A program made the position numbers and the translations under genes. A DNA stretch of 23,450 nucleotides from a virus (Duplodnaviria; Heunggongvirae; Uroviricota; Caudoviricetes). Under the pieces are notes generated by a model. The model was not told the DNA's origin. It did no database searches and was given only the letters and a program-made list of their open reading frames with translations. Positions 1-23,450 of the stretch are shown piece after piece. Numbering within the stretch: the first letter of the stretch is position 1; each line of letters starts with the position of its first letter. The DNA is taken from the IMG/VR virus record IMGVR_UViG_2541047903_000002; one strand, given 5' to 3'.

Positions 1-944
1 CTATGCTGTTTTGATATCTACGATAATCCAGTCTTTACCACGATCATCATTGTATCGGTCGGTCATTTTTCTGGATTTATGACCTAACAACTTTTGCGTA
101 TCCAGACCCTGTTCCCGATATAACCGTTCTGACAGAGATCGCTGCTCATGAAATGTGGGCGCAGTTCCTGGCTCCCATTTTATGCCACATTTTTCCCTGG
201 CCTTTTTAAAAGCCGTTGTAAGAGTATTTGCAGACACCTGGTCTCCTCTGTTTGCTTGAGAGGTAGTGTGACGGTAATGGACCAGATATTTACTAACAAC
301 AGCATCCCTGCACTGAGATATAACTTCACGAAGGGTAATATTCAGAGCATCGCATTTCAGGTTAAGCGGAATAGCAAGTTTTGAACCGGTTTTTTCCTGA
401 GTAATGTGCAACATGTCGTCCCAGATATCAGAGAATTTCAAATTGCAGATATCGCCTAAACGTTGTCCAGTGACAAGAGCAAGTAGCATCCCGCATTTTA
501 AATAGGGCTGCCGTCTGCTTACGCTGTCAAATATTGCCTGCCATTCGGGCAGTGATAATCTTTGGCGGTTTACTCGATTTCGCGGTTGTTTTGTTGCCTG
601 CGCTGGGTTAAATCCTGGCGGAACATGTCCTGCGTGTTGTGCTTCTTTGAAGACGTCGATCAACACCATTCTCACGACTTGCGCCATCCTGTTATGACCT
701 TCAGCCTTTACAGCATCAATTATTTCGGCAATATCAAGTGCGGTAATATCCTTGAGGTGTTGCATTCCACAATGCTCACGGAAAAGACGAATGGGTTTGC
801 CTTTTTGCCGATAGGAGTTGGGTCTTAGTTCATTATGTTGCAGCCTGTCCTCCTGGATAGAAATATATTTATCAAGCCATTCTGTCACCGTAATGTCTGA
901 GCGCCTGCCTTTCATTCTTTCTAGACGCTCATTGACGCTTAATA
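1..944 (-). pseudogene. int: Lambda-family tyrosine integrase, C-terminal core-binding and catalytic part, separated from its N-terminus by IS10
   Basis: 304-aa ORF (1..915) ends with a lambda-Int-like C-terminus (HKSRKMTDRYNDDRG...). Frame stays open up to the IS10 junction at 944 and is in phase with the N-terminal fragment at 2283..2481. Confidence 0.85.
936..944. repeat. Left copy of the 9-bp target-site duplication (CGCTTAATA) flanking IS10
   Basis: Identical 9-mer read directly on both sides of the IS10 ends. Confidence 0.8.
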
Positions 945-989
945 CTGATGAATCCCCTAATGATTTTTATCAAAATCATTAAGTTAAGG

Positions 990-1059
990 TAGATACACAT
1001 CTTGTCATATGATCAAATGGTTTCGCCAAAAATCAATAATCAGACAACAAAATGTGCGA
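990..1059 (-). ncRNA. IS10 RNA-OUT antisense RNA (position inferred from the known IS10 layout)
   Basis: Established IS10 organisation: pOUT transcript is complementary to the 5' end of the transposase mRNA. Placement relative to the tnp ATG at 1052 is inferred, not read as a defined transcript. Confidence 0.4.
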
Positions 1060-2260
1060 ACTCGATATTTTACACGACTCTCTTTACCAATTCTGCCCCG
1101 AATTACACTTAAAACGACTCAACAGCTTAACGTTGGCTTGCCACGCCTTACTTGACTGTAAAACTCTCACTCTTACCGAACTTGGCCGTAACCTGCCAAC
1201 CAAAGCGAGAACAAAACATAACATCAAACGAATCGACCGATTGTTAGGTAATCGTCACCTCCACAAAGAGCGACTCGCTGTATACCGTTGGCATGCTAGC
1301 TTTATCTGTTCGGGCAATACGATGCCCATTGTACTTGTTGACTGGTCTGATATCCGTGAGCAAAAACGGCTTATGGTATTGCGAGCTTCAGTCGCACTAC
1401 ACGGTCGTTCTGTTACTCTTTATGAGAAAGCGTTCCCGCTTTCAGAGCAATGTTCAAAGAAAGCTCATGACCAATTTCTAGCCGACCTTGCGAGCATTCT
1501 ACCGAGTAACACCACACCGCTCATTGTCAGTGATGCTGGCTTTAAAGTGCCATGGTATAAATCCGTTGAGAAGCTGGGTTGGTACTGGTTAAGTCGAGTA
1601 AGAGGAAAAGTACAATATGCAGACCTAGGAGCGGAAAACTGGAAACCTATCAGCAACTTACATGATATGTCATCTAGTCACTCAAAGACTTTAGGCTATA
1701 AGAGGCTGACTAAAAGCAATCCAATCTCATGCCAAATTCTATTGTATAAATCTCGCTCTAAAGGCCGAAAAAATCAGCGCTCGACACGGACTCATTGTCA
1801 CCACCCGTCACCTAAAATCTACTCAGCGTCGGCAAAGGAGCCATGGATTCTAGCAACTAACTTACCTGTTGAAATTCGAACACCCAAACAACTTGTTAAT
1901 ATCTATTCGAAGCGAATGCAGATTGAAGAAACCTTCCGAGACTTGAAAAGTCCTGCCTACGGACTAGGCCTACGCCATAGCCGAACGAGCAGCTCAGAGC
2001 GTTTTGATATCATGCTGCTAATCGCCCTGATGCTTCAACTAACATGTTGGCTTGCGGGCGTTCATGCTCAGAAACAAGGTTGGGACAAGCACTTCCAGGC
2101 TAACACAGTCAGAAATCGAAACGTACTCTCAACAGTTCGCTTAGGCATGGAAGTTTTGCGGCATTCTGGCTACACAATAACAAGGGAAGACTCACTCGTG
2201 GCTGCAACCCTGCTTACTCAAAATCTATTCACACATGGTTACGTTTTGGGGAAATTATGA
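1052..2260 (+). CDS. IS10 transposase
   Basis: 402-aa ORF MCELDILHDSLYQFCPELHLKRLNSLTLACHALLDCKTLTLTELGRNLPTKARTKHNIKRIDRLLGNRHLH... matches the IS10/Tn10 transposase as I recall it. Confidence 0.9.
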   Translation: MCELDILHDSLYQFCPELHLKRLNSLTLACHALLDCKTLTLTELGRNLPTKARTKHNIKRIDRLLGNRHLHKERLAVYRWHASFICSGNTMPIVLVDWSDIREQKRLMVLRASVALHGRSVTLYEKAFPLSEQCSKKAHDQFLADLASILPSNTTPLIVSDAGFKVPWYKSVEKLGWYWLSRVRGKVQYADLGAENWKPISNLHDMSSSHSKTLGYKRLTKSNPISCQILLYKSRSKGRKNQRSTRTHCHHPSPKIYSASAKEPWILATNLPVEIRTPKQLVNIYSKRMQIEETFRDLKSPAYGLGLRHSRTSSSERFDIMLLIALMLQLTCWLAGVHAQKQGWDKHFQANTVRNRNVLSTVRLGMEVLRHSGYTITREDSLVAATLLTQNLFTHGYVLGKL

Positions 2261-2273
2261 GGGGATCTCTCAG

Positions 2274-2282
2274 CGCTTAATA
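2274..2282. repeat. Right copy of the 9-bp target-site duplication (CGCTTAATA)
   Basis: Same 9-mer as 936..944, immediately after the IS10 inner end. Confidence 0.8.
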
Positions 2283-2481
2283 TTTGTCGGGTACGTTGTT
2301 CAGCAATAATGGTATTTGCTTCAGTAGCAACTTGTTTTGCTTCATTCTCATCAGTTCCTAAGCTATGAAAACGACCGGATAGTGGATGTTTGTATTGCCA
2401 ATATACCTTTCCGGTTCGCTTATCTAATTTGCAATATAAATTGGGTATAGAGATTTTGTGAGATCGGGGTCTAGCAGCCAT
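2283..2481 (-). pseudogene. int: Integrase N-terminal (arm-binding) fragment, cut off by IS10
   Basis: MAARPRSHKISIPNLYCKLDKRTGKVYWQYKHPLSG... resembles the lambda Int N-terminus. Removing IS10 plus one duplication copy restores a continuous 380-codon frame. Confidence 0.8.
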
Positions 2482-2707
2482 CAGCGATTATCCGTTGGAG
2501 TTTTGGGTTTGCGTTTATTGGGAGTTGCGGTTCTGCAAGCGTTCCTACAAAACGGGAATTTCGGTCAATCATCCAGTAGCGACCAACTTTTATAGCGGGT
2601 GGGGCCATCATTTTCCCTTGCGCGTATTTTTTCAGAACTCGCTCACTTGGTGCTAAGTCCCCAAATTCTTCTTTAGCCCAGTCCTGTAAAGTGATTAGTC
2701 GAGACAT
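2471..2707 (-). CDS. xis: Excisionase
   Basis: 78 aa, MSRLITLQDW... resembles lambda Xis (MYLTLQEW...); its 3' end overlaps the int start, the usual xis-int arrangement. Confidence 0.7.
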   Translation of the reverse strand: MSRLITLQDWAKEEFGDLAPSERVLKKYAQGKMMAPPAIKVGRYWMIDRNSRFVGTLAEPQLPINANPKLQRIIADGC

Positions 2708-2846
2708 TTGTCCTCCTCTTAGCTGCTGAGGGAGTTTGTGACCGATATATCTGACATGATATTAAGCTCATGGCAGGTACATCTCTTGACTGGTCATAGA
2801 GATAAATTTAATGCTGAGAAATGCAGTATTGAATTTATCAATTTTT

Positions 2847-3086
2847 CTATTTCCTGCGTATGGCACGTAACTTCTTAATGTGTTCTGCTGTTTCGATCTC
2901 TTCAGCTATCCGATCTGCGTCAGCTTTATTCACAGGTTCAAAGTCATGATTAAAGCGGAACATGCTGGCGATACATGTTCTGCCTTTTCGGATGTAGTGA
3001 ACTTTGTTGTGAGTGGAACGCAGGATTTTGCAGGGAGTGCCGTGGTGGTCGACGTACCAGGTGTTAGGGTAAATCACTCTGAACAT
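2847..3086 (-). CDS. Hypothetical small phage protein
   Basis: 79-aa ORF in the early-left operon orientation; no motif recognised. Confidence 0.4.
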   Translation of the reverse strand: MFRVIYPNTWYVDHHGTPCKILRSTHNKVHYIRKGRTCIASMFRFNHDFEPVNKADADRIAEEIETAEHIKKLRAIRRK

Positions 3087-3111
3087 TCTTGACCTTGTGT
3101 TGTGCGGATTG

Positions 3112-3396
3112 TTATTCAGTGCCGATATTTACCTTTATCGCGTATACCTTTACCGGTTTATCACCGAAGTGCGGATGTGTGATTGTCTTCACTTCATATC
3201 CGTCATACGGAACATCAACTCTGCGGCTGGAATCGTCGCGCTTCGGATATCCCTTTGTGATAATCAGGCGGTCATGCTTACGGTTAACGAGGCGCTTTTT
3301 CCAGTAGTCATTACACAGGCGATACTCTTCCGTTTTCTCTCCGCGAATCATGGCATCGAAGTATTCACCTTTAACGGCAAGTTGCAGGTTAGCCAC
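3112..3396 (-). CDS. ASCH-like (PUA-like) domain protein, putative
   Basis: G-E-K-T-E-E-Y-R matches the ASCH G-x-K-x-x-x-x-R signature. Start moved in frame to a GTG preceded by AAGGAG, just after the upstream stop; the track start at 3480 would overlap the upstream gene by about 90 nt. Confidence 0.45.
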   Translation of the reverse strand: MANLQLAVKGEYFDAMIRGEKTEEYRLCNDYWKKRLVNRKHDRLIITKGYPKRDDSSRRVDVPYDGYEVKTITHPHFGDKPVKVYAIKVNIGTE

Positions 3397-4129
3397 GGTT
3401 AACTCCTTGCTGTGTGGCGTCGAGTAATAAATCCCACAACCGCTGAGAGCAATTTCCGCATGTACAGCGTTGACCCACAACGTTTATCGCGTTGCTGATT
3501 TCCGGCGTTACCTGTTTAGGAACCATAACCCAACCATCCGGAGTTACCGGAAGCGAGAACGGCAGCACATCTCTGTGAACAAGTTTTTGCTGTGACAGGT
3601 TATCCAGAACTTTCTGTACTGCTGCATCACCGAATACACCAAGCGCATCTGCCATAACTCCTACAACCTGATAAGCCTCAGCGCATACCGTGGATAAACC
3701 ATCCGGAATTACCGGAGAGTTGCCGGGTTCTTTAATGTGCAAGCGAGGCTCACCATCTTTTGGCTCAGGCCACTGGCGCTCCATGTTGATCTTCAATTTA
3801 TCTTCCATAGCAACGGTAATTTCAGCATCGCTGATGCCAGCACGGCGCTGTGCATCCCACAACAGAAACTGCATATCAGCCCACTCGCTAAGATCGTCTG
3901 GTTCGGCTGCGGCTTCCAGTGCCTCTTTTGAGAGGTGTTTCAGTGGACCAATGGGGCCAACGCAGCCAAATGTGGAGTCAGACCATTTGGCATGCTCGTG
4001 GCGAATCTGTTCGCGTTCCAGTGATGCCAGTGCAATTCGTGCTAGTTCCATTTGTTCGCCACGAGTAAGCCCGTTTTCAAGCGGATTTTTAATGAACAAT
4101 TCAATACGTTCTTTGGTAATAGTGGTCAT
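3389..4129 (-). CDS. Prophage protein, probably MazG-like dATP/dGTP pyrophosphohydrolase (DUF550) N-domain with a DUF551-like C-domain
   Basis: 246 aa; assignment by recollection of this common enterobacterial prophage family, not by search. Confidence 0.5.
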   Translation of the reverse strand: MTTITKERIELFIKNPLENGLTRGEQMELARIALASLEREQIRHEHAKWSDSTFGCVGPIGPLKHLSKEALEAAAEPDDLSEWADMQFLLWDAQRRAGISDAEITVAMEDKLKINMERQWPEPKDGEPRLHIKEPGNSPVIPDGLSTVCAEAYQVVGVMADALGVFGDAAVQKVLDNLSQQKLVHRDVLPFSLPVTPDGWVMVPKQVTPEISNAINVVGQRCTCGNCSQRLWDLLLDATQQGVNRG

Positions 4130-4335
4130 GTGTTAATCCTCAAAACTTTATGCCCGGGCGCAAAAGTACGTGTTTTGTCTTTGCTTATTCGCCACCCGTC
4201 TTTACGGGCCTCTTTTGCACAACCAGACCATGACGTACCGATATACTCACCGAAGTCTGGCACTGGATATACACCTTCCGTACACTGGCGACAATCACAA
4301 TAGAGATGCATGGTGTAACTTGCGGCAATAGCCAT
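4126..4335 (-). CDS. Small Cys-containing protein (possible zinc ribbon)
   Basis: MAIAASYTMHLYCDCRQCTEG...; stop overlaps the downstream start (ATGA); start placed at an internal ATG that overlaps the stop of an upstream reading frame. Confidence 0.4.
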   Translation of the reverse strand: MAIAASYTMHLYCDCRQCTEGVYPVPDFGEYIGTSWSGCAKEARKDGWRISKDKTRTFAPGHKVLRINT

Positions 4336-4508
4336 ATCACTCTCTTTTTCCCTGAAGCATGGCAGCGTGGCAGGCATCCTCTACGCCCTTAACTGCATCT
4401 GCGCAGTAGTTATAGCGATTGCATTCCACTAACTTCTGCCTGAGATTTTCAATTGCTTGCGCGACATCAGCCTGTATTTGAAGTGGTCAACAAAAACTGG
4501 CCACCGAG

Positions 4509-5656
<1,148 letters not shown>

Positions 5657-5864
5657 TATGGCACCTGTGTTGTTCTGAGGTGAGCATATCACCTCTGTTC
5701 AGGTGGCCAAATTCAGTAAACCACTTCACTTAAATAGTGGATTGCGGTAGTAAAGATTGTGCCTGTCTTTTAACCACATCAGGCTCGGTGGTTCTCGTGT
5801 ACCCCTACAACGAGAAATCGGATAAACTCTATTCACCCCTACAGAGAGCAAAAGAGAAACGCCG

Positions 5865-6446
5865 ATGAACAACTCATGGTGGCAGGAACTAATGCATTTT
5901 TTCCTGCAAGGAATGACACTTAAACAGTTGATTCATATGCTAATCATCCTGATCATATTGATTATTGTTATGCCGGTAAGCGTAAAAGAATGGATAAACC
6001 TGCATAGTCCAGAAATCCTTCCTCATTACTGGATGTATTACATCCTGTTGTTTTGCGTTAGCTATGTGCTTAACGGCGTTGTTAATTCCGCTTATCACGC
6101 TGTGACTGAAAGAATTGAGGTATTCGCTGCTCAGAAGCGCAAATCTAAAGAAGAAAAATATGTGCAAGATTTGTTTGATTCGTTAACTCTTGGAGAAAGA
6201 GCGTATTTGGCATTCGCTGTAGCCGCTAATAACCAGCTACAAACGGAAAAGGGCGCTCATGAATCAATTTCATTGCTCAAAAAAGGACTCCTCGTTCGAA
6301 GGCCTCCTGCTGTTGGATATCCTGATACCGACCGTTTCGTTATCCCTGAAAGCTATAGACATGAGTGCTACATTAGGTTTGCCGGGAAGGCAGACAGCCT
6401 TATGGATGAACTTATCGCTCAGGATAAGCATGGCAAAAACAAGTAA
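5865..6446 (+). CDS. sieB: Putative superinfection-exclusion protein (SieB-like), membrane protein
   Basis: 193 aa with a hydrophobic N-terminal region (LIHMLIILIILIIVMPV, YILLFCVSYVLNGVV); divergent from and adjacent to N, in an AT-rich segment. Call is by position and composition. Confidence 0.5.
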   Translation: MNNSWWQELMHFFLQGMTLKQLIHMLIILIILIIVMPVSVKEWINLHSPEILPHYWMYYILLFCVSYVLNGVVNSAYHAVTERIEVFAAQKRKSKEEKYVQDLFDSLTLGERAYLAFAVAANNQLQTEKGAHESISLLKKGLLVRRPPAVGYPDTDRFVIPESYRHECYIRFAGKADSLMDELIAQDKHGKNK

Positions 6447-6462
6447 TTAGCAAATGAATTTA

Positions 6463-6735
6463 TCATCTCGCCGTCAGTTGTTTTGATTTCCGGTAGCCTG
6501 CCGCGTAAAGAGCTACGTTCGGAAGACAAGTTGAACCTTCATATTTTCTGGTCAACGTTGTCAGAGTTATCACTTCTGCTCTCATTGCTGGTTTGAGCTT
6601 GCATTGCAAGACCACTCGTGAAGGGGTTGGCCTGTGTAGCTTGTCGGAGCTGATCGCCTCCTGACTTTGCAGATTTGCGCGACGAGCTCTACGGCGAGAA
6701 GCTGCGGTGCCTTTAAATTCTGTTTTTCTGGACAT
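6463..6735 (-). CDS. N: N-type transcription antiterminator
   Basis: Arginine-rich motif GTAASRRRARRANLQ near the N-terminus; C-terminus VALYAAGYRKSKQLTAR resembles P22 gp24; GGGAGG Shine-Dalgarno before the ATG at 6735. Confidence 0.8.
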   Translation of the reverse strand: MSRKTEFKGTAASRRRARRANLQSQEAISSDKLHRPTPSRVVLQCKLKPAMRAEVITLTTLTRKYEGSTCLPNVALYAAGYRKSKQLTAR

Positions 6736-6834
6736 GGATTCCTCCCGAATAAACTTTGGCGATGCAATCTCGAAGCTCCTCCTGAGACGGTTGCTTCGGC
6801 ATTGCATCCCACAGCTTATGTGGTTGGGTGATCT

Positions 6835-6878
6835 GGCTTTTCAGCCACGTAGTCGAGAGTCGACGTTGTTTAAAGAGC
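6835..6878 (-). promoter_or_regulatory. nutL: boxA-like GCTCTTTAA plus boxB hairpin GGCUGAAAAGCC
   Basis: Read on the minus strand between pL and N; same boxA - about 23 nt - boxB layout as the site after cro. Confidence 0.6.
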
Positions 6879-6924
6879 CTGCCAGTCTGTTCCATTTGGC
6901 TTCCAGCGTCCTGCTGACGGTTAA

Positions 6925-6953
6925 ATAGTACGATATGTACTTTACAAGATCAA
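6925..6953 (-). promoter_or_regulatory. Candidate pL (-35 TTGATC, 17-bp spacer, -10 TACTAT) with an overlapping palindromic operator AGTACGATATGTACT
   Basis: Hexamers and palindrome read directly on the minus strand upstream of nutL. Confidence 0.5.
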
Positions 6954-7140
6954 TACAATTTGTTGTAAGTTGGCGTGGTTTTTTATAACGCTTTGTATTT
7001 AATAGTGTTGTTTTTTAGCGTGGATGTATTGCCTCGGCGATGTAAGGAGAGATCAGAATTGCGTGGTTTAGTGGGTTGCATCTATTTATTTTTCAATAAA
7101 TATAATTGGTTATGTGTTTTTAGGTGGGCGAACGTGAGGC

Positions 7141-7166
7141 AAAGAAAACCCGGCGCTGAGGCCGGG
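7141..7166 (-). terminator. Intrinsic terminator ending the cI-linked operon
   Basis: Minus-strand hairpin CCCGGC-CTCAGC-GCCGGG followed by TTTTCTTT, directly after the 250-aa gene. Confidence 0.6.
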
Positions 7167-7171
7167 TTGTA

Positions 7172-7924
7172 TTATGCTGCAAGTCTCTTAACCCAAGTCT
7201 CTCTTTTGGAGAATGGTAGAACTTGGCTTGATTCATGGAAGAGTAAGGAGAGTTGTTGCATTTGATCACCAATTGCTTCGCTGTCTATAACAACAAATCT
7301 GTTGTTATACTCCTCACTTGAAGCTTTAAGATCAATTAGTTTCCCAAGCAATGAGTAAGCACTATTCCAGCTTCCTCCGTGTTTCACGCTTGATGTAAAA
7401 ACGTATTTAGGTATGTCGGTTTTTATTGTTACAGGGACGGTAATTTGATGTCCACTCAAGCCATATACGTTTTCACGAAGAGAAAGTGCGTCTCTAAGCT
7501 CTGTGTGATATAGATAATCAATAACCATACTTTCAAACTTTTCAGCTTGAACTGGCTGATACCAGTCTAACGACAAAGTTGATGCGAGTATACCAGCTCT
7601 AATTATGTTCGATGTAATCGCACCGACATCCTTTTCTGTTGCCCAAGCAATGATTTCTCCTCGAGCATTGAGTTCTGCGCCTTCTTTAAGCAGTAATTGT
7701 CGTATCTCATCAAGTCGTTTTTTGGTAAGCGAGATCCCTCTTGCCTCCATATTCATTAAGGCATCGCATCTGTCACTAACTAAATACCTACCATTGACTT
7801 CACGGATAAAGGCACCGACATGCTCTCCATCATCACAGTAAGTGAATGGACTGATAATTCTCAAGGTCTTGCCTATTGGATGGCATTCGAAACCTAGTTG
7901 TGAGATCACTGTTGAGCACATCAT
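7172..7924 (-). CDS. Hypothetical protein, second gene of the cI-linked cassette
   Basis: 250-aa ORF; start ATG overlaps the stop of the upstream gene (ATGA); AT-rich; no family recognised. Confidence 0.7.
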   Translation of the reverse strand: MMCSTVISQLGFECHPIGKTLRIISPFTYCDDGEHVGAFIREVNGRYLVSDRCDALMNMEARGISLTKKRLDEIRQLLLKEGAELNARGEIIAWATEKDVGAITSNIIRAGILASTLSLDWYQPVQAEKFESMVIDYLYHTELRDALSLRENVYGLSGHQITVPVTIKTDIPKYVFTSSVKHGGSWNSAYSLLGKLIDLKASSEEYNNRFVVIDSEAIGDQMQQLSLLFHESSQVLPFSKRETWVKRLAA

Positions 7925-8478
7925 ATTCCAAACCCCATTTGCCCCGACTCATCTTCAAGCGGTAAAGGTATTCTCCCAGAGTAAGTTATGTTCAGATGTT
8001 TACAGAAGTAATTCCAATACCCTACCAGGTCATCTGGGTTTATGTCATCTTCGATTGGAAACGCTATTCTATCACTATAGTATCCAGCTTCTTCATAGTA
8101 TACATGGTAGTGAGCACCGTAAATGATATCTTGGTACTTCGGATGATCGACCTTGTAACTATTCGTGTGTTTGTCAAAGTGATAGGTATCTACCGCGAAA
8201 ACCCTCTTGTTATGATAGAAAGCAATAATATTTATTTTAGGGTAAGAAATCGGGTCATCAGGTTCTGAATCCTGATCTGGTTTCCATTTCAGTTCAAACT
8301 TTAGCCCTTGTATAGGTATACAATCCTCATCCAAGGGGATGATATGGGCTTGTAGCCACATATCAGAGCGACTTGGTTTCTGTTTCCATTTAACGCCAGA
8401 AAAGTTAACTATTTTTTTACAATAAAGTACTTTATCAACTTCTACTTGGCTTGGCTGATAATCATCTATTTTTGCCAA
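7921..8478 (-). CDS. Hypothetical protein, first gene of the cI-linked cassette
   Basis: 185-aa ORF starting 39 nt after the cI stop (track start is TTG; true start uncertain); acidic, Tyr/His-rich C-terminal half; AT-rich. Confidence 0.65.
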   Translation of the reverse strand: MAKIDDYQPSQVEVDKVLYCKKIVNFSGVKWKQKPSRSDMWLQAHIIPLDEDCIPIQGLKFELKWKPDQDSEPDDPISYPKINIIAFYHNKRVFAVDTYHFDKHTNSYKVDHPKYQDIIYGAHYHVYYEEAGYYSDRIAFPIEDDINPDDLVGYWNYFCKHLNITYSGRIPLPLEDESGQMGFGI

Positions 8479-8517
8479 TGTTTACCGCCCTGTAAATTGT
8501 AGATAAAAGTGGTTTCA

Positions 8518-9177
8518 TCACCCAAACGTCTCTTCAGGCCATTGGCTGGCGATAACTTTCCCCACAACGGAACAACTCTCATTGCATGGGATCATTGGGT
8601 ATTGTGGGTTTAGTGGCTGTAGAAACACCTGACCGCTATCCCTGATCAGTTTCTTGAAGGTAAATTCATCACCACCAAGTCTGGCTATGCAGAAATCGCC
8701 GGGCTCAACAGCTTGCTCAGGGTCAACCAGAATTAACATCCCGTCAGGAAAGCTGGGTTTGGAACCTGTTGGTGCGGTCATTGAGTTACCTTCAACCTCA
8801 AGCCAGAATGCAGAGTCACTGGCTTTTTTGGTTGTGCTTACCAATCTCTCCGCATCGCCTTTGGTAAAGGTTCTGAGTTCTGGAGAGAACATCCCAGCCT
8901 GAACATGAGAAAAAACAGGGTACTCATATTGTTTTTTAACTGGGGCCGATGAGTATTCGCCAACAGGTGAAAATGTCCCGTCGTGGTTGAATGATATGTT
9001 ATCAATACCAAGGTATTTAAACACCACACCAATATCACTAAGAGATGGATGACGAGATCCGCGCAACCAGTGTCCAATCCCACCCTGCGTCATACCTAGC
9101 TCTTCGGCTAACTTCTCTTGAGTTATGCCGAGCTCTTTCATTCTGGATCTAGCCAGTTCATACCATTTCATTTTCAT
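8518..9177 (-). CDS. cI: CI-type prophage repressor with a lambda-type C-terminal domain
   Basis: C-terminal about 135 aa ([21 protein letters not shown]...QWPEETFG) match lambda CI; N-terminal HTH domain is different. Start at M-K-M-K-W-Y (9177 or 9171). Confidence 0.85.
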
Positions 9178-9288
9178 GTCCTTATTATTACGCTCTGTAC
9201 TGGAACCATCCATGCACAATGTGTATTTTTACTTGTATTCGCAAAGTACATATTGTATTTTTTTATTCGTGTTTACTATGGAGGGCAT
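9178..9288. promoter_or_regulatory. Right operator/promoter region between cI and cro (pRM/pR), with imperfect palindromes
   Basis: AAGTACATATTGTAT resembles the palindrome at pL; CACAATGTG and a GGAGGG Shine-Dalgarno before cro also present. Confidence 0.55.
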
Positions 9289-9504
9289 ATGAGCAACCTA
9301 CGAAAATATCGAGAGTCACTGAATATCTCTCAAACAACACTTGCTAAGGCAGTTGGATGCACACAGGGAGCTATCGGACATTGGGAATCTGGTCGTCGCT
9401 TCCCAGACCTTAAAACATGCCGTGCTCTTGTTGCGTGCCTAAACAAGTTAGGCGCAAAAGTCAGTCTTGATGACGTGTTCCCGCCGGAACACAAAGCCGC
9501 TTAA
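9289..9504 (+). CDS. cro: Cro-type HTH repressor
   Basis: 71 aa MSNLRKYRESLNISQTTLAKAVGCTQGAIGHWESG...; the HTH (TQGAIGHW) is close to that of the adjacent repressor (TQGGIGHW). Confidence 0.8.
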   Translation: MSNLRKYRESLNISQTTLAKAVGCTQGAIGHWESGRRFPDLKTCRALVACLNKLGAKVSLDDVFPPEHKAA

Positions 9505-9514
9505 TAAGCGGATC

Positions 9515-9560
9515 CGCTCTTTGTAACAACGGACATTCGTCCTACGTCGCTGAAAAGCGA
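9515..9560 (+). promoter_or_regulatory. nutR: boxA CGCTCTTTG plus boxB hairpin TCGCUGAAAAGCGA
   Basis: Read directly; spacer between boxA and boxB is nearly identical to that of nutL. Confidence 0.6.
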
Positions 9561-9645
9561 GTTCCAAGATATCTGACCAACTAAGGCCATATGCGTTTCC
9601 ACGCATACCTTTCAACTAACTATTCACTATTGGAAATCTTAAGAA

Positions 9646-9942
9646 ATGGAAAGAACAAGTTACAGCAAACTATCACAGCGTGACGTTGATCGCGCAGAAA
9701 CAGATTTACTTATCAATCTGTCAGCTATTACCCAGCGCGGTCTGGCAAAGATGATTGGCTGTCATGAATCGAAGATAAGCAGAACGGACTGGAGATTTAT
9801 TGCTTCGGTCTTGTGTGCTTTCGGAATGGCATCAGACATCAGTCCGATTAGCAGGGCTTTTAAGTATGCGCTTGATGGACTCACCAATAAAAAACGCCCG
9901 GCGGCAACCGAGCGTTCTGAACAAATCCAGATGGAATTCTGA
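9646..9942 (+). CDS. cII: CII transcriptional activator
   Basis: C-terminus TNKKRPAATERSEQIQMEF matches lambda CII. Confidence 0.9.
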   Translation: MERTSYSKLSQRDVDRAETDLLINLSAITQRGLAKMIGCHESKISRTDWRFIASVLCAFGMASDISPISRAFKYALDGLTNKKRPAATERSEQIQMEF

Positions 9943-9963
9943 GGTCATTACTGGATCAATCCA
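9887..9963 (-). ncRNA. oop: oop-like antisense RNA
   Basis: Minus strand matches the lambda oop RNA as I recall it, including the terminator ...CGGUUGCCGCCGGGCGUUUUUUAUU; antisense to the cII 3' end. Confidence 0.55.
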
Positions 9964-9974
9964 CAGGAGTCATT

Positions 9975-10874
9975 ATGACAAATACAGCAAAAATACTCAA
10001 CTTCTGCAGAGGTAACTTTGCCAAACAGGAGCGTAATGTGGCAGATCTCGATGATGGTTACGCCAGACTATCAAATATGCTGCTTGAGGCTTATTCAGGC
10101 GCAGATCTGACCAAGCGACAGTTTAAAGTGCTGCTTGCCATTCTGCGTAAAACCTATGGATGGAATAAACCAATGGACAGAATCACCGATTCTCAACTTA
10201 GCGAGATTACAAAGTTACCCGTCAAACGGTGCAATGAAGCCAAGTTAGAACTCGTCAGAATGAATATTATCAAGCAGCAAGGCGGCATGTTTGGACCAAA
10301 TAAAAACATCTCAGAATGGTGTATCCCTCAAAACGAGGGAAAATCCCCTAAAACGAGGGATAAAACATCCCTCAAATTGGGGGATTGCTATCCCTCAAAA
10401 CAGGGGGACACAAAAGACACTATTACAAAAGAAAAAAGAAAAGATTATTCGTCAGAGAATTCTGGCGAATCCTCTGACCAGCCAGAAAACGACCTTTCTG
10501 TGGTGAAACCGGATGCTGCAATTCAGAGCGGCAGCAAGTGGGGGACAGCAGAAGACCTGACCGCCGCAGAATGGATGTTTGACATGGTGAAGACCATCGC
10601 GCCATCAGCCAGAAAACCGAATTTTGCAGGGTGGGCTAACGATATCCGCCTGATGCGTGAACGTGACGGACGTAACCATCGCGACATGTGTGTACTGTTC
10701 CGCTGGGCATGCCAGGACAACTTCTGGTCCGGTAACGTGCTGAGCCCGGCCAAACTCCGCGACAAGTGGACCCAGCTCGAAATCAACCGTAACAAGCAAC
10801 AGGCAGGTGTGACAGCCTGCAAACCAAAACTCGACCTGACAAACACTGACTGGATTTACGGGGTGGATTTATGA
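9975..10874 (+). CDS. O: Replication initiator O
   Basis: 299 aa, near-identical to lambda O from memory (MTNTAKILNF...). Confidence 0.95.
   Translation: MTNTAKILNFCRGNFAKQERNVADLDDGYARLSNMLLEAYSGADLTKRQFKVLLAILRKTYGWNKPMDRITDSQLSEITKLPVKRCNEAKLELVRMNIIKQQGGMFGPNKNISEWCIPQNEGKSPKTRDKTSLKLGDCYPSKQGDTKDTITKEKRKDYSSENSGESSDQPENDLSVVKPDAAIQSGSKWGTAEDLTAAEWMFDMVKTIAPSARKPNFAGWANDIRLMRERDGRNHRDMCVLFRWACQDNFWSGNVLSPAKLRDKWTQLEINRNKQQAGVTACKPKLDLTNTDWIYGVDL
10323..10455. repeat. ori-lambda: four iterons plus AT-rich region inside O
   Basis: Four tandem TCCCTCAAAACGAGGGA-like repeats followed by ACAAAAGAAAAAAGAAAAG. Confidence 0.85.
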
Positions 10875-11932: not shown

Positions 11933-12373
11933 ATGAAAAAACTAACCTTTGAAATTCGATCTCCGGCACATCAGCAAAACGCTATTCACGCAGTACAGCA
12001 AATCCTTCCAGACCCAACCAAACCAATCGTAGTAACCATTCAGGAACGCAACCGCAGCTTAGACCAAAACAGGAAGCTATGGGCCTGCTTAGGTGACGTC
12101 TCTCGTCAGGTTGAATGGCATGGTCGCTGGCTGGATGCAGAAAGCTGGAAGTGTGTGTTTACCGCAGCATTAAAGCAGCAGGATGTTGTTCCTAACCTTG
12201 CCGGGAATGGCTTTGTGGTAATAGGCCAGTCAACCAGCAGGATGCGTGTAAGCGAATTTGCGGAGCTATTAGAGCTTATACAGGCATTCGGTACAGAGCG
12301 TGGCGTTAAGTGGTCAGACGAAGCGCGACTGGCTCTCGAATGGAAAGCGCGATGGGGAGATCGGGCTGCATGA
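11933..12373 (+). CDS. ninB: NinB recombination protein
   Basis: MKKLTFEIRSPAHQQNAIHAVQQILPDPTKP... matches lambda NinB from memory. Confidence 0.9.
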   Translation: MKKLTFEIRSPAHQQNAIHAVQQILPDPTKPIVVTIQERNRSLDQNRKLWACLGDVSRQVEWHGRWLDAESWKCVFTAALKQQDVVPNLAGNGFVVIGQSTSRMRVSEFAELLELIQAFGTERGVKWSDEARLALEWKARWGDRAA

Positions 12374-12897
12374 CTATCAAATCAAATACGCCAGCACACG
12401 ACAAGGACTGCTGGCAAACGCCGCTTTGGCTTTTTGATGCACTGGATATTGAGTTTGGATTCTGGCTGGATTCGGCAGCGAGCGACAAAAATGCTCTGTG
12501 CGCTCACTGGCTAACTGAGGACGACGACGCGCTCAATTCTGAGTGGGTAAGCCACGGTGCAATCTGGAATAACCCACCGTACAGCAATATCAGGCCGTGG
12601 GTGGAAAAAGCCGCTGAGCAGTGTATACAACAGCGACAGACGGTAGTGATGCTTGTGCCAGAGGATATGTCTGTCGGATGGTTCAGCAAGGCTCTGGAGA
12701 GTGTTGACGAAGTTCGTATTATCACTGATGGACGGATTAATTTTATCGAACCATCGACAGGGCTGGAGAAGAAGGGAAACAGCAAAGGCTCCATGCTGCT
12801 GATTTGGCGACCGTTCATCAGTCCTCGACGGATGTTTACTACCGTATCCAAAGCGGCATTGATGGCGATCGGGCAGGGCGTCAGGAGGGCTGCATGA
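12370..12897 (+). CDS. Phage-type DNA N6-adenine methyltransferase
   Basis: NPPY catalytic motif (WNNPPYS); ATGA overlaps with ninB upstream and ninE downstream. Confidence 0.8.
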
Positions 12898-14205: not shown

Positions 14206-14589
14206 ATGCGTGATATTCAGATGGTTCTTGAGCGTTGGGGTGCGTGGGCGGCTAATAATCATGAAGATGTGACCTGGTCGTCCATTGCCGCCGGTTTTAA
14301 GGGATTAATTCCTTCAAAAGTAAAATCTCGCCCGCAATGTTGTGACGATGACGCGATGATCATTTGCGGGTGCATGGCCCGTCTGAAAAAGAACAACAGC
14401 GATTTACACGATTTATTAGTAGATTATTATGTATGTGGTATGACATTCATGTCACTGGCAAGTAAGCATTGCTGCTCGGATGGTTATATCGGGAAAAGGT
14501 TACAGAAGGCTGAGGGCATAATTGAAGGGATGTTAATGGCATTAGATATCCGGTTAGATATGGATATCGTTGCTAATAATTCTAATTGA
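14206..14589 (+). CDS. Q: Late-gene antiterminator Q (DLP12/phage-82 type)
   Basis: [24 protein letters not shown]... with Cys-rich zinc-binding region; position after rusA. Confidence 0.85.
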
Positions 14590-14726
14590 TATGCAATTGT
14601 TTACTAAAAGTTATTAAAAATGGGGCGTGGAAACGCCCCCAAAATAAAGGGTAATATATAACAGAAGGTTTATATAGTAAGAAGCAAGGTAGTGCTTCTA
14701 AAGGAAGTGGCTTGAGGGCTCCACTT

Positions 14727-14767
14727 ATATGTTGCGGAGGCAAAGCCTCCCGCAACATATCTTTTTC
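14727..14767 (+). terminator. Strong intrinsic terminator between Q and the convergent porin gene
   Basis: 14-bp perfect stem ATATGTTGCGGAGG/CCTCCGCAACATAT, loop CAAAGC, then CTTTTT. Confidence 0.7.
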
Positions 14768-14777
14768 GTAAGTCAGA

Positions 14778-15860
14778 TTAGAACTGATAAACCAGACCTA
14801 CAGCGACGATGTCGTCGGTATCAATACCAGCTGTTTTGGTAAACTTACTATCGTCAATTAAGTTGATTTTGTAATCAACAAAAGTGGACATGTTTTTATT
14901 AAAGTAGTAAGTAGCACCGACATCGACATACTTGACTAAGTCTCGGTCACCATGAACACCAAGGTCTTTACCTTTTGACTGAAGGTAAGCAACAGATGGA
15001 CGCAGACCGAAGTCAAACTGATATTGTGCTACTGCTTCAAAGTTTTGTGCTTTGTTTGCAATATGGTTATTACCAAAAACGGTCATATTCTGAGTTTCAG
15101 AATATGTGGTAGCCAGATAGATATTGTTCGCATCATATTTCAGGCCTGCAGCCCATACTTCCGCATTTTTGCCGGAGGCATTGAATTTGCTCTTACCATA
15201 GGCGACCTGACCGTCAGTGCGATCTGATTTAGCATAGGTTGCACCCACGCCGAATCCTTCATACTCATAAGTAGTGGAGAAACCGAAACCATCACCATTG
15301 GCTTCAGTTACGTCAGTGCGGTCATTTTTACCCTGATACTGAGCAGCAAAGTTCAGGCCATCGACCAGACCAAAGAAGTCGTTGTTACGATAAGTTGCAA
15401 CACCAGTAGTGCGACCAGTCATGAACACATCTGTTTGGGTCCAGGTATCACCACCGAATTCTGGCAGAACGTCAGTCCACGCACCGATGTCGTATGCTAC
15501 ACCGTAGTTACGGCCGTAATCGATTGAGCCGTAATCACCAAATTTCAGGCCTGCAAATGCAAGACGGGTTTTGTCTTTGGAAGAACCTTGAGATTCAGCA
15601 CGGTTGCCTTTGAATTCATATTCCCACTGACCGAAACCAGTCAGTTGATCGTTGATTTGGGTTTCACCTTTGAAGCCAAGACGGGCATAAGTAGTATCAC
15701 CATCATCTGCATCATTAGAGGAGAAGTAGTGCTTGGCATTAACTTTCCCGTATAGATCCAGCTTGTTACTGTCTTTATTATAAATTTCAGCTGCCTGAGC
15801 AGACATCGCCATCAGTACTGATGCAGCTACAGCAGAAATTGCCACTGTTAATTTTTTCAT
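14778..15860 (-). CDS. nmpC: Outer-membrane porin of the OmpC/OmpF/NmpC family, apparently intact
   Basis: Signal peptide [23 protein letters not shown], porin-like beta-barrel sequence, C-terminal ...VGLVYQF. Confidence 0.9.
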
Positions 15861-16287
15861 TGTACGCCCTTTTTTTGAACTTTTATTAAAAAATGATGTC
15901 ACTGCGCGATAAATATTCATCTAATCAATGTGATTATTTCAAGATGTAAGTTTTAGTTTCTCATTTAATTTGTGAAGTAGATCTCTATTTTTATCTGAAC
16001 CTTTTCTATCTAATCCTATTCATGGCTCTTGTCTGAACAAAAATAAATCTATTAGCTAATTTATATTAATGGCACTTATTTATAAGTGCTCTATAATTCT
16101 TTAGCTTAATTTAAACAAACTAAAAATAACATCGGAAATTATTAACTGGTTATTTGTTGAAGTTTTCTTATGCATTTGTGGTGGTGTTTTGAACACTCGG
16201 TGGCATTCTCACAAATATCATTTAGTAGTTTACGTACGTAAAAAATTGGTTATGCTGTTAAGAGTGGTTACTTCGTCACACAGCTTA

Positions 16288-22151: not shown

Positions 22152-22341
22152 ACTGCAGGCGCTGCGTCAGGCGCGCCTTGATTTATTAACCGGTAAACGG
22201 GTGGTGTCTGTCCAGAAAGATGGTCGCAGAATTGAATATACGGCGGCTTCTCTGGATGAGCTTAACCGGGCGATCAATGATGCGGAGTCGGTACTGGGGA
22301 CAACCCGGTGTCGCCGTCGTCCGCTGGGAGTGAGGTTATGA
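22135..22341 (+). CDS. W: Head-tail joining protein W
   Basis: 68 aa with TGKRVVSVQKDGRRIEYTAASL, lambda gpW-like. Confidence 0.85.
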   Translation: MVTVAELQALRQARLDLLTGKRVVSVQKDGRRIEYTAASLDELNRAINDAESVLGTTRCRRRPLGVRL

Positions 22342-23450
22342 AACGAACGCCTGTCCTGATTGATGTGAACGGCGTTCCGCTTCGTGAGAGTCTCAGCTAC
22401 AACGGGGGCGGTGCAGGATTTGGCGGGCAAATGGCTGAGTGGTTGCCACCGGCGCAGAGTGCCGATGCGGCCCTGCTGCCCGCGTTGCGTCTGGGGAATG
22501 CCCGGGCAGATGATCTGGTGCGCAATAACGGAATAGCGGCTAATGCGGTGGCCCTGCATAAGGATCACATTGTCGGGCATATGTTTCTGATCAGCTACCG
22601 TCCGAACTGGCGCTGGCTGGGGATGCGGGAGACCGCAGCAAAAAGCTTTGTCGATGAGGTGGAGGCGGCCTGGTCGGAATACGCCGAAGGGATGTTTGGC
22701 GAGATCGACGTGGAAGGAAAACGCACGTTCACGGAATTTATCCGTGAAGGTGTGGGCGTTCATGCGTTTAACGGCGAAATCTTTGTGCAGCCGGTCTGGG
22801 ATACGGAAACCACGCAGTTATTCCGTACGCGTTTTAAAGCCGTGAGTCCGAAACGGGTGGACACGCCTGGACACGGTATGGGGAACCGTTTTCTGCGGGC
22901 CGGTGTGGAGGTCGATCGATATGGCCGTGCCGTCGCGTACCATATCTGTGAGGATGATTTTCCGTTCTCTGGTAGTGGACGATGGGAACGGATCCCGCGT
23001 GAACTTCCCACCGGGCGTCCGGCCATGCTGCATATTTTCGAGCCGGTGGAGGACGGGCAGACCCGTGGGGCTAATCAGTTTTACAGCGTCATGGAACGGC
23101 TGAAGATGCTCGATTCCCTGCAGGCAACACAGCTTCAGTCGGCCATAGTGAAGGCGATGTATGCAGCGACGATTGAAAGTGAACTTGATACCGAAAAGGC
23201 CTTTGAATATATCGCCGGCGCGCCACAGGAGCAGAAGGATAATCCGCTTATTAATATTCTGGAGAAGTTCTCCAGCTGGTATGACACGAATAACGTGACA
23301 CTGGGCGGTGTCAAAATTCCGCACCTTTTCCCTGGTGATGATCTGAAACTACAGACTGCGCAGGATTCAGACAATGGATTTTCTGCGCTTGAACAGGCGC
23401 TGCTGCGGTATATCGCCGCCGGTCTTGGCGTTTCCTACGAACAGTTGTCC
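22338..23450 (+). CDS. B: Portal protein B, 5' partial (runs past the window end)
   Basis: Hand translation from the ATG overlapping the W stop gives lambda gpB-like sequence (GNARADDLVRNNG, FEPVEDGQTRGANQFYSVME) with no stop up to 23450; missing from the track because it has no stop in the window. Confidence 0.85.
   Translation, partial: MKRTPVLIDVNGVPLRESLSYNGGGAGFGGQMAEWLPPAQSADAALLPALRLGNARADDLVRNNGIAANAVALHKDHIVGHMFLISYRPNWRWLGMRETAAKSFVDEVEAAWSEYAEGMFGEIDVEGKRTFTEFIREGVGVHAFNGEIFVQPVWDTETTQLFRTRFKAVSPKRVDTPGHGMGNRFLRAGVEVDRYGRAVAYHICEDDFPFSGSGRWERIPRELPTGRPAMLHIFEPVEDGQTRGANQFYSVMERLKMLDSLQATQLQSAIVKAMYAATIESELDTEKAFEYIAGAPQEQKDNPLINILEKFSSWYDTNNVTLGGVKIPHLFPGDDLKLQTAQDSDNGFSALEQALLRYIAAGLGVSYEQLS

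Follow-up and report, generated by a model that had tools for sequence, protein, structure and literature searches.

We examined a stretch of viral DNA of 23,450 nucleotides (nt) (Caudoviricetes; IMG/VR record IMGVR_UViG_2541047903_000002), which is referred to at its full length as the window, and within it a minus-strand cassette of two genes, here called A and B, at positions 7172-8478, next to a cI-type repressor gene. The cassette is an accessory element (a "moron") that appears to extend the operon of the prophage repressor and is predicted to be made in the lysogen from the repressor maintenance promoter (pRM), and we lean toward the view that the pair is a lysogen-expressed two-component anti-phage module, acting by superinfection exclusion or abortive infection. 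This reading follows from the position of the cassette in the repressor operon, its mobility, the variable occupancy of the slot, its membership of a candidate defense family together with the defense candidates found beside it, and its retention in decayed prophages, each of which is typical of prophage defense cargo.

Gene A (7921-8478, minus strand) encodes a soluble, acidic protein of 185 amino acids (aa) from a TTG start codon, and gene B (7172-7924, minus strand) a two-domain protein of 250 aa. The original prediction, made from the sequence alone, had described two leftward open reading frames (ORFs) of these lengths separated from cI by 39 nt, and the coordinates were reproduced. It had also described a stop-start overlap, and the junction sequence agrees: the end of A and the beginning of B share ATGA (7921-7924, minus strand; junction letters GGAATATGATGTGC), by which the two genes are predicted to be translationally coupled. 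The proposed TTG start of A is backed by the N-terminus MAK, which is conserved among all close homologues, and matches the call for the identical gene in the RefSeq annotation of CFT073. The spacer between cI and A (8479-8517, minus strand, 39 nt) contains GGGCGG, a ribosome-binding, Shine-Dalgarno-like site positioned 6 nt ahead of the TTG, and a terminator sought in this spacer was not found. The repressor gene itself (8518-9219, minus strand) is presumed to be the first gene of the operon; its product carries HTH_3 and Peptidase_S24 domains, and its counterpart in phage PhiR57_1 is annotated as cI. A hairpin terminator had been predicted at 7141-7166, and one is indeed present after B, but we place it at 7147-7168 (minus strand). 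This intrinsic-terminator-like hairpin of 8 pairs, 6 of them G-C, followed by TTCTTTGCCT, closes the cI-A-B unit, and the homologous stretch of phage 933W carries the annotation "terminator". Given the short gap, the spacer free of a terminator and the terminator after B, the two genes look to be co-transcribed with cI.

The left edge of the slot is formed by the OL operators and the pL region (6920-6965, minus strand). Operator-like inverted repeats at 6923-6943 and 6952-6963 match OR at 9243-9263, and on the basis of these repeats OL/pL lies approximately 180-245 nt past the terminator. The window also encodes N, sieB and ren. Because the order is cI, A, B, terminator, and then OL/pL and N, the cassette fills exactly the interval that rexA-rexB occupies in lambda, as had been proposed. 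The presence of ren had been offered as a further clue to function, since in lambda it counters Rex exclusion; it proved uninformative, because the same general layout is seen in related phages that have the cassette and in a related prophage whose cargo is different. A boxA-like sequence and a hairpin (6852-6864) lie after OL/pL and precede N. In this interval (6852-6877), the boxA-like CTCTTTAAACAA is followed by a hairpin with a 5-bp stem, GTCGACTCTCGAC, which is probably a nutL belonging to a non-lambda type of N; no lambda boxB pattern occurs in the pL-N region of the window. A search of Rfam gave no credible RNA family within positions 5700-10200.

The slot is occupied differently behind one and the same repressor. 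The window cI is present at 99% identity or more in 490 E. coli records, and the cassette was found in 241 of 5,426 complete E. coli genomes, always at 99% identity or more and always on the chromosome. In O157:H7, which has a 99%-identical cI, the slot holds a 66-aa DUF3024 fragment (locus L017, 4236-4436) and an unknown protein of 173 aa, and a 92.7%-identical cI is followed by an empty slot, with N directly next. Since the same cI is found with other cargo or with none, the pair is a mobile accessory cassette; this agrees with the original proposal of an accessory element, as does the use of the slot by other defense candidates. The accompanying claim that the segment is more AT-rich than its flanks held, in a moderated form. 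The GC content of the cassette is 39.6%, as compared with 46.3% for cI and 46.8% for the window, and GC at third codon positions is 0.34-0.36 versus 0.45-0.58 in neighboring genes, but the contrast, while real, is moderate, and sieB is likewise low in GC (41%).

In the related prophages, too, the pair lies behind a divergently arranged repressor gene and is read from the same strand as that gene. The repressor is of the Peptidase_S24 type in the window and in 19 of the 20 related loci that were checked, the Klebsiella locus having instead a 128-aa RacR-like helix-turn-helix (HTH) protein. These 21 repressors form 12 clusters at 50% identity, and several have no detectable similarity to the window cI. 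It had been suggested that one check whether homologues recur next to unrelated repressors, and homologous pairs do stand behind at least 12 such clusters in unrelated prophages. One alternative hypothesis, favored by so strict an association with the repressor operon across at least 12 types of repressor, is that the pair is an accessory of lysogeny control, which tunes the repressor switch, induction or lysogenization of its own phage. RexA is reported to modulate the lysogeny-lytic switch (PMC12894663), and the domain of B that resembles a nucleic acid enzyme (see below) would suit such a role. We consider this hypothesis very improbable, given that the same cI works with other cargo or an empty slot, that the pair serves repressors unrelated in sequence and, presumably, in their operators, and that the pair is also found away from any repressor, beside defense candidates (loci L038 and L039).

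The cassette is carried by strains CFT073, Nissle 1917, NU14, ATCC 11775 and ATCC 25922, and by phages ev017, ev207, PhiR57_1, PhiR63_2 and one Stx1a phage; its presence in sequenced phage genomes is compatible with phage growth. PhiR57_1 and PhiR63_2 were grown on ECOR13 and, by name and host, we take them to be part of the Brenes & Laub temperate-phage panel. The cassette also remains intact in degraded prophages: in the window, insertion sequence (IS) elements replace the left arm, and in CFT073 cI is a pseudogene. There the repressor (L002, 10347-11048) is annotated as split and incomplete, consisting of an S24 fragment and a separate HTH gene, whereas both cassette genes are 100% identical to those of the window. 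The cassette has outlived the repressor in CFT073.

Both ORFs are real genes, as indicated by dN/dS values far below 1 and by the conservation of the pair across genera. In comparisons with orthologues, in which synonymous sites were saturated, dN/dS was 0.09-0.18 for A and 0.05-0.08 for B, and A diverges approximately 1.5 times faster than B. Word-indexed searches recovered A in 21-26 clusters and B in 47 (90% identity); every one came from Enterobacterales or Aeromonas, and A and B often shared a contig. An exhaustive profile search yielded 236 clusters (50% identity) of B relatives, and nearly all of the full-length ones are about 250 aa. A lies directly upstream of B in all 16 loci of the first set, as well as in 18 of the 21 additional IMG/VR contigs, of the Pseudomonas type, where A-type genes were identified by hmmsearch with the A profile (E 3e-21 to 5e-32). 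Two distant representatives, P0078 and P0099, were searched singly in viral contigs, and nothing was found. The A-B loci include those of Izhakiella, Yersinia, Providencia (two), Xenorhabdus and Pantoea among the Enterobacterales, a Klebsiella Rac-like prophage, Aeromonas caviae, a low-GC IMG/VR phage contig and Pseudomonas phage VB_PaD_phPA-G. Every locus whose gene ends were read, be it from Enterobacterales, Klebsiella, Aeromonas, IMG/VR or Pseudomonas, shows the same 4-nt overlap. In phPA-G, the A-like gene (L016, 4486-5004; PP083311.1, about 14515-15033) is unannotated in GenBank; it has the 4-nt overlap with the annotated B homologue and keeps the invariant residues of H..N and HxH as well as the GQMGF tail. 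The A-then-B pairing is obligate.

Two small co-translated genes with an ATGA overlap, which move among many prophage backbones, are kept in decayed prophages and include one partner with a nuclease-like fold, might also constitute a toxin-antitoxin-like addiction module that stabilizes the prophage, or is itself a selfish cassette, with no direct protection against phages. We think that this is improbable. Searches of Pfam, NCBIfam and PADLOC gave no match to a known toxin or antitoxin family, the proteins are large for a type II pair and have no DNA-binding antitoxin domain, and a search of 72,556 plasmids, on which addiction modules tend to be common, gave no copy of the cassette. Such modules are, moreover, in many cases defense systems themselves, so that this hypothesis overlaps with that of an anti-phage module.

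The anti-phage reading is also consistent with the company that the pair keeps. A DUF3024 protein of 113 aa, which corresponds to the PADLOC candidate PDC-S43 (E 1e-38), lies between the repressor and A in Izhakiella and Providencia (L009, 5044-5385; L011, 5053-5394; L012, 5052-5393). A PDC-S48-like protein of TerB/BRCT-like type is encoded ahead of A in phPA-G (L016, 3680-4330), and another of this type, with a BRCT domain, after B in Aeromonas caviae (L003, 7876-8796); the TerB-like look of the N-terminus was judged by eye only. In several Pseudomonas-type contigs, the repressor and A are separated by a small ORF of about 80 aa. In L038 and L039, where no repressor adjoins the pair, its neighbors are either PDC-M63A/B (E values of 1e-47 and 2e-154) or a HipA-like/DUF3037 pair, and these neighborhoods also carry an endonuclease I gene. 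The slot downstream of the repressor thus seems to collect several defense candidates.

These neighborhoods bear on yet another hypothesis, according to which the pair is a host-fitness moron unrelated to phages, with a role in stress tolerance, virulence or metabolism, comparable to bor, lom or the prophage's own porin gene (see below). Its position predicts expression in the lysogen, protein A looks like an enzyme, and the carriers CFT073, NU14, Nissle 1917 and ATCC 25922 are extra-intestinal pathogenic or probiotic strains of the B2 type. Such a role has, in our view, only a slight chance of being the correct one: both proteins are cytoplasmic and lack signal peptides and membrane segments, the pair lies repeatedly beside defense candidates, and its distribution tracks prophage repressors across lifestyles (Aeromonas, Xenorhabdus and Pseudomonas).

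The original prediction had recognized neither protein and had regarded the pair as uncharacterized and a candidate novel module, but the pair does fall within catalogued families. PADLOC, Pfam, NCBIfam and PHROGs returned for A and B only PDC-M24, DUF1828, DUF6978 and unnamed PHROGs. PDC-M24, a PADLOC candidate, is likewise a two-gene unit; A and B are adjacent and co-oriented in the window and in all related loci in which both were found. B aligns with PDC-M24B over its full length, its residues 2-249 covering positions 4-254 of the 256-position profile (E 4.7e-10), and in the wider B family 49 of 60 representatives also match PDC-M24B, the best at 9e-55. A weakly matches the C-terminal part of PDC-M24A (E 4.8e-4; residues 104-163 against profile positions 79-134 of 148) and, again in its C-terminal part only, Pfam DUF6978, with 22 bits, which is below the gathering cut-off of 29.6; the homologue of A in L015 scores 19.8 bits against DUF6978. 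The window proteins differ from PDC-M24 in being divergent, and by these profile matches the pair is predicted to be a divergent prophage-borne member of that family. RexAB, BstA and any other named defense or exclusion system were rejected as identities for A-B, since PADLOC gave only PDC-M24 and NCBIfam nothing useful. Profiles of the A and B families, when compared by sequence with solved structures, gave spurious matches only.

As had been predicted, neither protein has a transmembrane segment, the maximum 19-residue hydropathy being 0.45 for A and 1.19 for B, and the AlphaFold models of both are soluble alpha/beta folds. Residues 1-121 of B form a DUF1828 domain (33.5 bits versus a cut-off of 22, residues 26-110) with a fold like that of type III secretion chaperones and DUF2170. 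In fold comparison, the chaperone-like matches scored 10.3 for DUF2170 and 7.7-8.0 for several type III secretion chaperones. B thus resembles type III secretion chaperones, DUF2170 and YbjN-like small alpha-beta proteins in the fold of its N-terminal domain, but differs from the secretion chaperones in having no secretion-system context, and partner binding by this domain is putative. Residues 128-250 have a restriction-endonuclease-like core fold, similar to that of PD-(D/E)xK nucleases (the nuclease domain of Can2/Card1 and enzymes of the NgoMIV/Cfr10I/PspGI type). The original remark that no nuclease was obvious, therefore, was wrong as to the fold of this half of B but right in that the canonical catalytic residues are missing. 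In alignments of the B family, the D...(D/E)xK residues of strands 2 and 3 are not conserved, K173 and the strand-3 positions being variable; conserved instead are M1, C3, P26, D32, D51, the GxSGH loop (155-159), W186 and D198. For GxSGH with D198, a Ser-His-Asp triad or a glycine-rich phosphate loop was considered as a putative assignment. Identity to the PD-(D/E)xK nucleases is 5-13%, and, unlike Can2/Card1 and the restriction enzymes, B has no CARF or DNA-recognition domain. Because D...(D/E)xK is not conserved, the nuclease-like domain is either inactive or unconventional. We also observed that the N-terminus M-(N/M)-C is kept across most of the B family and that Cys3 is invariant in the closer set, a conservation unusual for a cytoplasmic protein.

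Protein A had been described as acidic with a Tyr/His-rich stretch, and this was borne out by its pI of 5.27 and by HYHVYYEEAGYY at residues 123-134. No solved fold matches its model. The residues W31, R92, H104, H123, H125, F158 and P173 are invariant among the proteins of Enterobacterales, Aeromonas and Pseudomonas, and D97, N106, N163 and Q180 are nearly so. In the model, H123 and H125 lie on one strand and H104 on another (103-105), with E129 at the start of the next helix, and the pattern of the histidines together with D97, N106 and R92 looks like a metal or catalytic center. The last eight or so residues (SGQMGFGI) are conserved and were modeled at low confidence, as might be expected of a docking peptide.

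One possible working model, which as a whole we hold with low confidence, is that the amounts of A and B are coupled and that the two proteins form a complex, in which the chaperone-like N-terminal domain of B would hold A, possibly by way of the conserved flexible C-terminal tail of A. The endonuclease-like domain of B, which is devoid of the usual catalytic residues, would sense the infecting phage, through a nucleic acid or a ligand, and thereby release or activate A. A would then be an effector of new fold, with H104, H123 and H125 forming, together with D97, N106 and R92, a metal or catalytic site, and would damage a nucleic acid or nucleotide target so that infection is halted. Alternatively, the roles may be reversed, A, which evolves faster, acting as the sensor and B being an unconventional nuclease. 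That the pair represents a mechanistically new form of immunity behind the repressors of many gamma-proteobacterial prophages, with an effector of unsolved fold built around an H104/H123/H125 center and restrained by a partner that is part chaperone-like and part disabled endonuclease, is rather unlikely.

Among characterized systems, RexA/RexB of lambda shares the slot, after cI and before the terminator and OL/pL; each system comprises two genes whose expression in the lysogen is presumed, and the lambda and window prophages alike have ren and sieB-type genes. Neither A nor B is related to RexA/RexB in sequence. RexB is a four-pass membrane channel (PMC12894663), and because A and B have no membrane segment, a mechanism of RexB-like channel depolarization does not apply. 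BstA of the Salmonella prophage BTP1 is likewise encoded directly downstream of the prophage repressor, an arrangement seen across many Gram-negative prophages, and its expression in lysogens is high (PMC8585504). It differs in being a single protein with a self-immunity DNA element, aba, which was not searched for here, and in having no homology to A or B. The interval between cI and N has been described as a mosaic hotspot of diversity that is expressed with the repressor and is the site of both rexAB and bstA (PMC8585504), a description with which the variable occupancy of the slot behind the window cI agrees.

A published study of Nissle 1917 provides a lead. The gene order of the Nissle 1917 prophage matches that of the window; there, two "hypothetical" genes, EcN_1291 and EcN_1292, lie between sieB and cI, and the study postulates an unidentified resistance factor in prophage 3 (PMC5987069). 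The gene called "pr" in that prophage was considered as the cassette and rejected, because it is EcN_1294, which follows the cI repressor gene EcN_1293 and by gene order is presumably the cro-like gene. The resistance of Nissle 1917 is only a lead and not evidence for the function of the cassette.

Several points argue against the anti-phage interpretation. The commensals SE15 and IAI1, which are without these two genes, also resisted lambda and stx phages (PMC5987069), and the cassette is therefore not needed to explain the Nissle 1917 phenotype. PDC-M24 is itself only a computational candidate. The matches of A to PDC-M24A and DUF6978 are weak and partial, with E about 1e-4, and the Pseudomonas A-like proteins give no match to either family. 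A nuclease role for B is doubtful in a family that does not conserve D...(D/E)xK. Transcription of the cassette from pRM is read from the layout of the locus, and the binding of A to B, the metal site and the division of roles into effector and sensor are all putative. A literature search, which did not cover Brenes & Laub 2025, found no experimental test of the pair, nor did it return any paper that deals with PDC-M24, with DUF6978 in phages, with DUF1828 in defense, with the protein accessions or with the PhiR phages. On balance, the original reading of the cassette as a defense candidate is reasonable and better founded now, its function being putative.

Other features of the window were observed in passing. 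Its gene order matches that of Nissle 1917 prophage 3 (EcN_1289-1311). Positions 1-5700 form a decayed left arm with an integrase gene (1-915, minus strand), a DDE transposase gene (1052-2260), a gene for a dATP/dGTP pyrophosphohydrolase-like protein (3389-4129) and, directly against sieB, an IS3/ISEc52 element (4509-5692); PhiR57_1 and CFT073 have an exo-bet-gam-kil-cIII-ral block that the window lacks. Between the Q and lysis regions lies a general porin gene of full length (14778-15920, minus strand; Porin_1, E 2e-151), and the nin region includes a gene for a Dam-like orphan methyltransferase (12310-12897, plus strand); these two genes add to the cargo of this prophage for lysogenic conversion or anti-restriction. 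Finally, three minus-strand ORFs (198, 88 and 168 aa; 22167-23324) stand directly after the terminase large-subunit gene, where plus-strand head genes are expected. The 198-aa ORF has no Pfam match, none of the three has a PADLOC match, and they may be another insertion.

The PDC-M24 family had already been flagged computationally, and the pair is not wholly new. New here are its consistent placement in the repressor operon across many gamma-proteobacterial prophages, the assignment of domains and folds, the invariant histidine center of A and a list of tractable strains and phages. The carriers include strains in wide use (prophage 3 of the Nissle 1917 type, CFT073, ATCC 25922 and NU14) and the sequenced temperate phages PhiR57_1, PhiR63_2, ev017 and ev207, which makes the cassette relevant to phage therapy and probiotic engineering, and its function is directly testable with strains and phage panels already available. 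If the anti-phage reading is correct, the pair would be the third unrelated system, after RexAB and BstA, in the repressor-linked slot, one that works without a membrane channel and with a protein of unsolved fold, and it would provide the first functional assignment for DUF1828, DUF6978 and PDC-M24.

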